Shown here one piece after another: positions 1,299-28,271 of a stretch of DNA of 64,000 nucleotides. Source of the stretch: Thermoproteota archaeon (GTDB taxonomy: Archaea > Thermoproteota > EX4484-205 > JAAOZP01); assembly GCA_038850115.1 (NCBI GenBank), contig JAWCMB010000002.1, positions 4,385 through 68,384 of the forward strand, read 5' to 3'. The notes below the pieces were generated by a model, which saw nothing but the letters and a program-made list of their open reading frames with translations, was not told the DNA's origin and did no database searches. Within the stretch, counting starts at the first letter, position 1; each line of letters opens with the position of its first letter. Both the position numbers and the translations under genes were made by a program.

Positions 1299-1694
1299 GT
1301 GAGCAGCGAACCCGAGAAATACGCGGTTGTACGAATATACTCCTCCGGCAACAATACTATAGTGCACGCTACAGACCCGAGCGGCTCCTCAACCCTCGCA
1401 ATATCCGCGGCAGGACAACATGTTAAGGCTGACAGGCTTGGTGGAAGCCCGTACGGTGCGATGGTGGCTGCGAACACTGTGGCGGGGGCCTTGAAGAAGC
1501 TTGGGATAACAAGCATAAAGGTGAAGGTGAGAGCACCCGGGGGAATAAAGTCTAGGACTCCTGGGCAGGGGGCGCAGGCAGCCATAAGAGCCTTGACTAG
1601 GGCTGGGCTGAGGATAATAGCTATCGAGGACATTACGCCGATTCCTACTGACGGAACTAGGAAGCCTGGTGGCAGAAGAGGAAGAAGATTCTAG
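1299..1694 (+). CDS. rps11: 30S ribosomal protein S11 (uS11), encoded on the opposite strand to its neighbours
   Basis: 131 aa. [19 protein letters not shown]...[34 protein letters not shown] is an unambiguous uS11. GTG start. Confidence 0.9.
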
Positions 1695-3247: not shown

Positions 3248-3352
3248 CGCCGAGGAGGGGATTTGAACCCCTAAGACCCTGATGGGTCACAAGCTTTCTG
3301 AAGATTTTGTCTTCTCCAGGCTTGCCCCTTGGCCAGATTCGGGCACCTCGGC
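3248..3352 (-). tRNA. tRNA-Ser(GGA), class II, with 18-nt canonical-position intron (3296-3313)
   Basis: Hand fold: acceptor GCCGAGG/CCTCGGC, 3-bp D stem, anticodon stem CAAGC/GCTTG, loop CU-GGA-G|intron|A, variable-arm hairpin GACCC-ATCA-GGGTC, T arm AGGGG-TTCAAAT-CCCCT. The intron forms a full hBHBh' motif (central helix CTGG/TCAG, bulges AG|A and AA|A, inner AGA/TCT). Confidence 0.85.
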
Positions 3353-3456: not shown

Positions 3457-4453
3457 TTAGCCACCCCACATCTTCGGGTAGAGGCCCCTATCCATCACAA
3501 CCCTTTCTACGGAAACCACTATCCCGCTCTTGGCTTGGAGAGCCTCGTCTGAACTCATGGTGAGGGTTCCGAAGCCTACGCATTCTCCCTTCAAGGTTTT
3601 TATGCATACTACGTCGCCCTTGGAAAGCGGGTGATCTATTTTCGAAACCCCTTTGGAGGCGAGTGGAGCGCCGTGGGCAACCGCCGCGACCGCGCTGTCC
3701 TTAATGTAGATTGAGGGGAAGCCTTTGAAAGCGTCTTCAACAGGCTTAACGAGCTTTCTGAGAAGAGTCTCATCGCTCTTCTCATAGAGCTGCCAGGCCG
3801 CGTAGAGTTCGAGGAGGGTTGTTGAAGAATCCTCGTTGAGAAAACCGTCCCTAACCCTTCTGAGCTCAACCATGTGCGCGCCAGTACCCAACAGGAGACC
3901 CAGGTCGTGGAGAAGCTTCCTAACATATGTGCCCGGCTCGGTGACAACTCTGAAAACAAACCTCCTGTCTGAAACATCTTCCACCGTAAACTTTAGAACA
4001 ATCCTCCGCCGCAGCGATCTCTTAACAGACGATTTAACCGGGGGCCGCTGGTATATTGGGCCAGTCATTTTCTCAACCCATCTTCGCAAAGCCTTCTCGT
4101 CGAAACCCCCGTGGATCTCGCATACTCCGACATACTCTTTACTCATCATGTGAAGGTACTCTATTGTTTTAGTAGCGTCGTTAAGGCAAACGGGTAGAAC
4201 ACCGGAGACGCCGGGATCTCCCCATTGCTTCAAGGGTCCCGGCGTGTCCAGCCTTCCCAGCGTTGAGAATCCTCTTAACTGTTGAAGACACGTCGTGGCT
4301 CGAGGGCCCAGGCGGCTTATCCAGGTTCACAACCCCCAGCTGCAGAAGCCTCGAGATGCTCCTCTTATCCGGGTGCTCCCCGTACTTCTCGTCGGTTTCA
4401 CACTCCTCCTTGACAAGCGTCCGGAACCTCACGAAGTCAACCAGCGTCCTCAA
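3457..4453 (-). CDS. cbf5: tRNA/rRNA pseudouridine synthase Cbf5 (TruB family + PUA), reading frame interrupted by a 13-nt intron-like element at 4218-4230
   Basis: Track ORFs 4181..4453 (..VVNLDKPPGPSSHDV..KAGHAGTL) and 3457..4233 (..DPGVSGVLPVCL..PUA) are the two halves of Cbf5. Joining 4231 to 4217 restores GHAGTLDPGVSGVLPV and gives 327 aa. N-terminal start (TTG 4453) is uncertain. Confidence 0.8.
4218..4230 (-). other. Putative 13-nt bulge-helix-loop (BHB-type) mRNA intron in cbf5
   Basis: mRNA ACGCCGGGA-CCCU-UG|AAGCAAU-GGGG-AG|A-UCCCGGCGU. It has a 9-bp outer helix, a 4-bp central helix CCCU/GGGG, a 3-nt bulge AGA, and both cuts 2 nt 3' of the central-helix strands. The predicted junction CTT G|AT CCC is in frame. 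Confidence 0.6.
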
Positions 4454-28177: not shown

Positions 28178-28271
28178 GGGCCCGTGGCCAAGCCAGGATA
28201 AAGGCGTCGAGAGGCTTACTCGCGCAGGCCTGCGGAGCCGGAGAACCTGGGTTCAAATCCCAGCGGGCCCG
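28178..28271 (+). tRNA. tRNA-Arg(GCG) with 18-nt non-canonical intron (28210-28227, position 29/30)
   Basis: Acceptor GGGCCCG/CGGGCCC. The 3' half CTGCGGA-GCCGG-AGAAC-CTGGG-TTCAAAT-CCCAG is canonical. Removing AGAGGCTTACTCGCGCAG restores anticodon stem TCGGC/GCCGG. BHB core: central GCGT/GCGC, bulges CG|A and AG|G, inner GAG/CTC. TATA GTTTAAATAAG lies 20-30 nt upstream and a T-run follows. Confidence 0.75.

Follow-up and report, generated by a model that had tools for sequence, protein, structure and literature searches.

How could an intact pseudouridine synthase be made from a gene that is broken, at the level of the DNA, within the codon for its catalytic aspartate? The question is raised by cbf5 in a 64,000-nucleotide stretch of contig JAWCMB010000002.1 from a Thermoproteota archaeon, an uncultured hot-spring member of the Brockarchaeota lineage (the window, meaning the whole stretch that was analysed), where two halves of the gene lie in different reading frames and are separated by the 13 nucleotides at 4218-4230 on the minus strand, AAGCAATGGGGAG. 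A first-pass annotation of the same DNA had read these nucleotides as a very short, relaxed intron, and its coordinates and frames are confirmed here. The parts of the gene are as follows, with a slash within a strand marking, here and below, a predicted cut or junction.

3457..4217, minus strand: cbf5 exon 2, 761 nt including the stop codon, opening with AU CCC GGC, that is, (..D)PGVSG
4218..4230, minus strand: predicted intron AAGCAAUGGGGAG, 13 nt, in phase 1 within the Asp75 codon (G/AU)
4231..4453, minus strand: cbf5 exon 1, 223 nt, encoding residues 1-74 plus G, the first base of the catalytic Asp codon

The upstream open reading frame (ORF; 4453-4231), which covers the DKCLD domain and the beginning of TruB_N, runs past its C-terminal ...KAGHAGTL through to a stop codon, and the downstream ORF, in a different frame, encodes the remainder of TruB_N followed by TruB_C_2 and PUA. 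Deletion of the 13 nucleotides yields a single 984-nt ORF of 327 amino acids in which the catalytic motif GHAGTLDPGVSG is intact, the product reading ...KAGHAGTLDPGVSGVLPV... (also given as ...GHAGTLDPGVSGVLPV...) across the junction and matching DKCLD, TruB_N, TruB_C_2 and PUA above the Pfam cut-offs. The gene so interrupted is the cbf5 orthologue, encoding a TruB-family pseudouridine synthase with PUA, and it stands in a conserved ribosomal-operon context.

We place a probability of roughly 0.88 on the 13 nucleotides being an intron spliced from the cbf5 pre-mRNA at a relaxed bulge-helix-loop (BHL) motif. This reading is drawn from the presence of the insert in 30 of 30 genes of the lineage, from constraint on synonymous sites in the helices, from an asparagine that would stand in the catalytic position of some relatives unless the insert is removed, and from a cutting rule that also works in seven other lineages. 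The element is a member of the known cbf5 intron family, found outside the reported taxa and sizes, and its mechanism is not new.

Anatomy and fold of the predicted intron

Canonical archaeal bulge-helix-bulge (BHB) motifs carry a bulge 3' of each strand of the central helix, and cleavage falls between the second and third base of that bulge (PMC2738675). The cbf5 transcript is predicted to fold into a relaxed form of this arrangement, the elements of which are given in the order of transcription.

4247..4252, minus strand: helix extension GCUGGA, pairing with UCCGGU at 4201-4206 across a 1x1 internal loop (4246/4207)
4237..4245, minus strand: 5' strand of the outer (exon-exon) helix, ACGCCGGGA, pairing with 4208-4216
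4233..4236, minus strand: 5'-exon strand of the central 4-bp helix, CCCU (Thr ACC plus Leu CU.), pairing with the intron GGGG
4224..4232, minus strand: 9-nt loop UGAAGCAAU, standing in for the 5' bulge and inner helix
between 4231 and 4230, minus strand: predicted 5' splice site UG/A, within the 9-nt loop, 2 nt 3' of the central helix
4220..4223, minus strand: intron strand of the central 4-bp helix, GGGG, pairing with 4233-4236
4217..4219, minus strand: 3-nt bulge AGA, on the 3' strand
between 4218 and 4217, minus strand: predicted 3' splice site AG/A, within the 3-nt bulge
4208..4216, minus strand: 3' strand of the outer (exon-exon) helix, UCCCGGCGU, forming 9 bp with 4237-4245
4201..4206, minus strand: 3' strand of the helix extension, UCCGGU, pairing with 4247-4252

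The first-pass annotation had described the 9-bp and 4-bp helices, the AGA bulge and the 9-nt loop, and this fold proves to be the minimum free energy structure of 4195-4255 (minus strand), in which the central CCCU/GGGG helix is stacked directly on the exon-exon helix. Its energy is -33.2 kcal/mol (z = -3.8), a stability reached by none of 200 shuffled sequences; the 46-nt core of the motif folds at -26.0 kcal/mol (z = -4.0), and the helix extension is conserved less than the core helices. The geometry is of the BHL type, namely a 4-bp helix with a 3-nt bulge on one strand, a loop on the other strand, and an adjoining exon helix. Cutting 2 nt 3' of each central-helix strand excises exactly 13 nt and joins CUU G/AU CCC, rebuilding the Asp codon; the earlier claim that the splicing-endonuclease ruler restores GTLDP is thus borne out by the junction and by the 327-aa ORF. 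In the predicted structure, the exon-intron borders match cuts between the second and third bulge base of a relaxed BHB motif.

If the transcript is processed as this geometry predicts, the codons for H-A-G-T would pair with those for D-P-G-V to form the 9-bp exon-exon helix, and the next four 5'-exon bases, CCCU, would pair with GGGG near the 3' end of the intron. The 3' splice site would thereby come to lie in a canonical 3-nt bulge, with the 5' site at a symmetric distance in the 9-nt loop. Cleavage of both sites by the tRNA splicing endonuclease (EndA), followed by joining of CUU-G to AU-CCC by an RtcB-type ligase, would give a mature mRNA that encodes the 327-aa Cbf5, with the Asp75 codon rebuilt across the junction.

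Conservation, constraint and the alternatives to splicing

The comparison on which this reading depends covers 30 genes, 26 of them distinct, consisting of that of the window and 29 relatives from independent assemblies, at 77-92% amino-acid identity. The relatives comprise 15 loci (one genome per GTDB species, 77-88% identity), 11 metagenome loci and three genes obtained via protein look-ups; they come from many hot springs and sediments, and the 15 loci belong to metagenome-assembled genomes (MAGs) labelled Candidatus Brockarchaeota (DRTY-6.bins.80, GD2_1, JZZ.bins.4, QC4_43) or, generically, Thermoproteota, Nitrososphaerota, Thaumarchaeota or Crenarchaeota. All 30 genes carry a 13-nt insert at the identical nucleotide. 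The insert has eight sequence variants with the consensus RRGMDWUGGGGAR, in which UGGGGA is invariant, and variation is confined to loop positions and to the last base, which is the middle base of the 3' bulge (G or A). The central helix CCCU/GGGG is invariant in these 30 genes and in seven other intron-bearing lineages.

The closest proteins bear the mark of the same break. Among 5.8 billion proteins, the 13 closest are 78-92% identical and each is without the N-terminal quarter, from which it follows that the split is present in the whole lineage. No intact close cbf5 paralogue was found in this collection or in the relatives' genomes, the best full-length match being at most 51% identical. 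In every relative, gene callers treat the two ORFs as separate genes. The public annotation (for instance L108 1293-2292, and proteins P0001-P0013) has a 90-aa DKCLD ORF and an overlapping 230-263-aa 'Cbf5' that begins at a spurious TTG or ATG, and a cbf5 intron is annotated in none of the public Brockarchaeota-lineage loci examined.

The ratio of non-synonymous to synonymous change (dN/dS) is ~0.08 in exon 1 and ~0.055 in exon 2 among the 26 distinct genes, and such low values mean that both halves are functional coding sequence and that neither is decaying; other frame breaks were not seen in these genes. Synonymous sites in the exons are near saturation, with a synonymous difference (pS) of ~0.65, as compared with a mean pairwise difference of 0.087 per site in the insert. 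Constraint of another kind is found in the helices, where the four-fold sites of Gly72 (GGG), Thr73 (ACC) and Leu74 (CUU) are invariant, and the third positions of Pro76 and Gly77 are only C or U (CCY, GGY), both of which pair with G. At the unpaired third codon positions of Gly69 and Val78, which form the 1x1 internal loop, all four bases occur. Four-fold sites with two or fewer base types make up five of five in the core helices versus seven of 73 in the rest of the gene (Fisher p = 3.8e-5). The control is a set of 41 distinct intron-less cbf5 genes, in which all synonymous forms occur at these residues (GGA/GGC/GGG/GGU, ACA/ACG/ACC/ACU, CUC/CUU/UUG/CUG/UUA and CCG/CCA/CCU/CCC). This restriction of synonymous sites, set against the intron-less genes, takes the place of covariation as a measure of pairing. 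All 13 core pairs are formed in each of 20 distinct sequences, the changes being one-sided, G·U-compatible transitions (C-to-U).

In all pseudouridine synthases, the catalytic aspartate acts as the essential nucleophile. In five of the 30 genes the intron ends in A where the others have G, and the unspliced downstream frame then reads Gly-Asn-Pro (for example MKQWGNPG in P0001), whereas predicted splicing gives L-D-P in 30 of 30. A frameshift product, or a separate C-terminal fragment, would thus be inactive in the genomes with Asn.

The asparagine bears directly on the possibility of a programmed +1 ribosomal frameshift at CUU-G, in which the peptidyl-tRNA-Leu would slip from CUU to UUG and give GTL-KQWG-DPGVSG without RNA processing. 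The arithmetic is favourable, in that 13 is 3n+1 and one +1 shift reconnects the frames; moreover, CUU-G is invariant, CUU and UUG are both Leu codons, and the stable downstream helix could serve as a stimulator. However, frameshifting would place four extra residues immediately ahead of the catalytic Asp in GTLD, a universally conserved motif, and would not keep the functional residue in the five genes where Asn takes its place. The conservation of GGGG, of the length of 13 nt and of synonymous sites compatible with pairing would be left unexplained, and the ruler also works on inserts of 16-26 nt elsewhere, including 3n+2 lengths with stop codons. On this evidence a frameshift is very improbable.

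It is just as improbable that cbf5 is a genuinely split gene, in which a 90-aa N-terminal and a 258-aa C-terminal fragment (with a TTG start at 4233) would be separately translated and assemble into an active enzyme. The separate annotation of the two ORFs in every relative and the purifying selection on both halves are consistent with such an arrangement, but the break would then fall within the catalytic loop, and the C-terminal fragment would carry Asn for Asp in the same five genes. The apparent TTG start is merely made up of Leu CUU and the G with which the Asp codon begins, and the RNA-structure constraint at synonymous sites has no place in this explanation. In addition, experiments have shown the homologous mRNA of Sulfolobus and Aeropyrum to be spliced (PMC2738675).

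A pseudogene, or an assembly or sequencing indel, which is what a frame-breaking insertion in an essential gene looks like in a single genome, is effectively refuted by the same 13-nt insert in 30 of 30 genes, 29 of them from independent assemblies, by dN/dS of 0.06-0.08 in both halves, and by the lack of an intact second copy in any relative. The first-pass view of a very short relaxed (BHL) intron, as opposed to a pseudogene, is therefore supported, with the same nucleotide affected in all 29 related genes and dN/dS of 0.055-0.08 unaccompanied by further lesions.

Splicing machinery, tRNA introns and the points against splicing

For a BHL intron to be removed from the cbf5 mRNA, the host would have to possess the enzymes of tRNA splicing, and a tRNA gene of the window is informative in this respect.

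3248..3352, minus strand: tRNA-Ser(GGA), with an 18-nt intron at 3296-3313, position 37/38

This gene is unannotated and lies ~100 nt downstream of cbf5, in a conserved block of a 760-nt 'gap'. It was missed by ARAGORN and by a fast Rfam 'gathering' scan, and was detected by a sensitive Rfam scan that left a 21-position gap in the anticodon loop. The sequence forms a cloverleaf whose variable arm is long, together with a CUGG/UCAG central helix that has AGA and AAA bulges, and excision of 18 nt by the same ruler leaves an 87-nt tRNA-Ser(GGA) that is recognised by ARAGORN. The tRNA is kept in all relatives, with introns of varying length. The BHB intron in tRNA-Ser(GGA) implies that the organism needs an EndA-plus-ligase pathway. 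Some 30 nt upstream of this tRNA gene there is a conserved AAAACTTAAAAAC-like (TATA-like) motif.

The tRNA gene at 28178-28271 (plus strand, 94 nt) is read by ARAGORN as a tRNA-Lys(CUU) whose variable arm is long and whose G32 G33 is odd. In the Rfam alignment, its anticodon arm is CAGGC-CUGCGGA-GCCGG, giving Arg(GCG), with ~22 extra nt in the D region, and the gene probably carries an intron at a non-canonical position.

A match to an endonuclease family was found in none of ten mid-size window ORFs scanned against Pfam, the remaining ORFs having been checked by eye only.

Several points weigh against splicing of the cbf5 insert. Cleavage of BHL sites requires an EndA of broad specificity, either alpha2beta2 with a Crenarchaea-specific loop lysine, or epsilon2 (PMC3241643), and the host would have to encode an enzyme of this kind. 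Moreover, cleavage is slower at BHL than at BHB sites, and one recombinant A. pernix enzyme barely cleaved the cbf5 BHL substrate (PMC3241643). In the helices of the 20 distinct sequences no two-sided compensatory changes were seen, which is expected because both strands are also codons, and a shuffle control was uninformative. The bare geometry, too, is no rarer than chance: a scan for an outer helix of at least 9 bp (G·U allowed), a 4-bp helix, a 3-nt 3' bulge and a loop of 5-40 nt returned 11 instances in the window (both strands) versus 5-22 in ten shuffles.

Since shuffled sequence gives a similar frequency, bare motif geometry was dropped as evidence of splicing, and the evidence must come from position and from comparison with relatives. 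The cuts that the first-pass annotation derived from the geometry do fit exactly, and the geometry alone occurs at chance frequency. What is above chance is the placement of the motif at the one nucleotide, and with the one length, that repairs the split catalytic motif, together with its conservation.

The same site in other lineages and in known systems

The BHL-intron reading gains from a wider comparison. Among the loci compared, in seven non-Brockarchaeota lineages the cbf5 frame is broken at the same codon, and in each the same ruler restores HxGTLDPxV/A-S/T-G. The seven share ...GGGACCCUNG / ... GGGGAN / AYCC, with identical phase, and their introns are of the following lengths.

L106, Sulfolobales-like contig: 23 nt
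L088, metagenome: 25 nt, a perfect hBHBh' with an AGA bulge and GCCCC-GGGGC
L041, labelled Geoarchaeota: 26 nt
L038, Guaymas 'Thermoproteota' MAG: 22 nt
L065 and L067, metagenome: 16 nt each
L096, metagenome: 13 nt

L106, whose protein (P0121) is 73% identical, serves as the Sulfolobales-like comparator and was found via a fragment of S. solfataricus Cbf5 derived by optical character recognition, a query that returned 24 short proteins. Asp-codon cbf5 introns of 13-26 nt, obeying the same ruler, are seen across uncultured lineages in L038, L041, L065, L067, L068, L085, L086, L088, L096 and L106. The idea that a long exon-exon helix compensates for the absent inner helix is not established, as L096 is also 13 nt, yet its outer helix is only 4 bp.

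In the case of L107 (1330-2339; JGI 3300041075, Ga0452204_043989), the GTLD site is intact, and a 42-nt in-frame insert with stop codons is found between ...INLD and KPPGP. A 4-bp helix (CUGG/CCAG) with AUA and AAA bulges flanks this insert, and the BHB ruler would give CTG GAT/AAA CCT, making it a candidate BHB intron at a new cbf5 position. A second break in L107, at ~1865, resembles a 5-nt tandem duplication (AACTA AACTA).

The surroundings of cbf5 are shared by the window and its relatives, with the gene order secY - EMC3-like - cmk - L14e (rpl14e) - cbf5 - (tRNA-Ser) - S13 (rps13) - S4 (rps4). In the window, rps11 (1299-1694, plus strand) is inverted with respect to rps13-rps4 (1696-2187 and 2197-2697, both minus strand), and is thus convergent with rps4. 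The inversion is found in every Brockarchaeota-lineage locus extending that far, and in L067/L068, whereas S11 is in the usual co-orientation in L016, L018, L019, L038 and L041. The inversion could be a lineage marker, and its sharing suggests that the L065-L068 lineage, with its 16-nt intron, is related to the Brockarchaeota lineage.

Published cbf5 introns, which bear out the first-pass statement that such introns are known from Crenarchaeota, are restricted to Desulfurococcales and Sulfolobales, measure 16-44 bp (PMC2738675, Additional file 1), interrupt the catalytic residue's codon, and mostly form unconventional BHB motifs (PMC2738675). In several species they have been confirmed by cDNA and by EndA cleavage, with cuts between the second and third bulge bases, and the 2009 study of Yokobori et al. 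dated the intron to the ancestor that Sulfolobales and Desulfurococcales share (PMC2738675). Later reviews still place cbf5 introns in a small group of related archaea (PMC10485636; PMC7714728). The paper describing Brockarchaeota, a TACK phylum basal to Aigarchaeota and Thaumarchaeota, is without mention of introns, Cbf5 or pseudouridine (PMC8065059), and a search of the available literature found no paper linking Brockarchaeota to a cbf5 intron. The predicted window intron and the published crenarchaeal ones are homologous in both position and core sequence; by position and structure, the window element is the same intron, reduced to its 3' core.

The range of the only well-established archaeal protein-coding intron would thereby extend to a phylum-level lineage and to several other uncultured lineages, a distribution that undermines the 2009 dating. 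It is possible, if somewhat doubtful, that the catalytic-site intron was not an innovation of the Sulfolobales/Desulfurococcales ancestor, and is either far older or was repeatedly gained at the same nucleotide. An older intron may have been present before Brockarchaeota, Geoarchaeota-like lineages and classical Crenarchaeota diverged, and have been lost many times since; repeated gain may have been favoured by GGG-ACC-CUN-G/AU-CCC of the GTLDP motif, which supplies eight BHB base pairs and would act as a pre-adapted landing site. If either variant is true, the 13-nt Brockarchaeota form, with its 9-bp exon-exon helix and no inner helix, would be the minimal mRNA substrate that the archaeal splicing endonuclease has in nature. 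A single protein of 320 aa cannot resolve phylogeny at these depths. The 2009 paper likewise found the Cbf5 phylogeny unresolved there (PMC2738675).

The window element suggests that the motif can be reduced to 13 nt without an inner helix, being the shortest example and from the most distant lineage so far; the known mechanism is unchanged and no new biochemistry is implied. The lineage-wide misannotation, consisting of a truncated 230-263-aa cbf5 and an orphan 90-aa ORF, affects marker-gene and completeness analyses.

With regard to known systems, Watanabe et al. (2002) and Yoshinari et al. (2006) reportedly described the BHB/BHL intron of cbf5 pre-mRNA, and Marck and Grosjean (2003) are said to have described non-canonical BHL/HBh' tRNA introns. 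One parallel is the splicing of HAC1/XBP1 in eukaryotes, which uses Ire1 together with tRNA ligase or RtcB, the XBP1 intron being 26 nt. Both there and, as predicted, in cbf5, a short structure-defined intron is taken out not by a spliceosome but by an endonuclease together with a tRNA-type ligase, and the reading frame is changed; however, Ire1 and its stem-loop motif are unrelated, the eukaryotic reaction is stress-regulated, and there is no evolutionary relationship.

Another is the BHB intron of Haloferax volcanii HVO_1309, likewise an EndA-dependent intron of an archaeal mRNA (Schwarz et al. 2020, PMC7714728). Unlike the cbf5 element, it is located in a 5' untranslated region, forms a canonical BHB in a euryarchaeal host with alpha2 EndA, and restores no frame. 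The BHL/HBh' tRNA introns of Crenarchaeota, Nanoarchaeota and Thaumarchaeota (Hirata et al. 2011, PMC3241643) have the geometry predicted here, with one site in a 3-nt bulge, the other in a loop, and a 4-bp helix between; they too are very short (5-7 nt for the BHL introns of A. pernix tRNAs), and their cleavage needs a broad-specificity EndA. The cbf5 substrate differs in being an mRNA coding region in which both exon strands are also codons of the catalytic motif, and in offering no tRNA body that would aid recognition.

The closest system is the cbf5 intron of Sulfolobales and Desulfurococcales, the splicing of which has been shown experimentally, whereas the window intron is predicted from structure and comparison. 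The two share the gene, the site within the catalytic Asp codon, the central helix CCCU/GGGG, the 3' end GGGGAG/A with its cut at the second and third bulge base, a relaxed motif, and an ORF that is split into two annotated genes; the phase (G/AY) is also that of the Sulfolobales-like L106. The window element departs from the known form in its length (13 nt versus the reported 16-44 nt), in having no inner helix, so that the 5' site lies in a hairpin loop, in an exon-exon helix of 9 bp plus extension versus ~4 bp, and in its host, a Brockarchaeota lineage outside the two reported orders.

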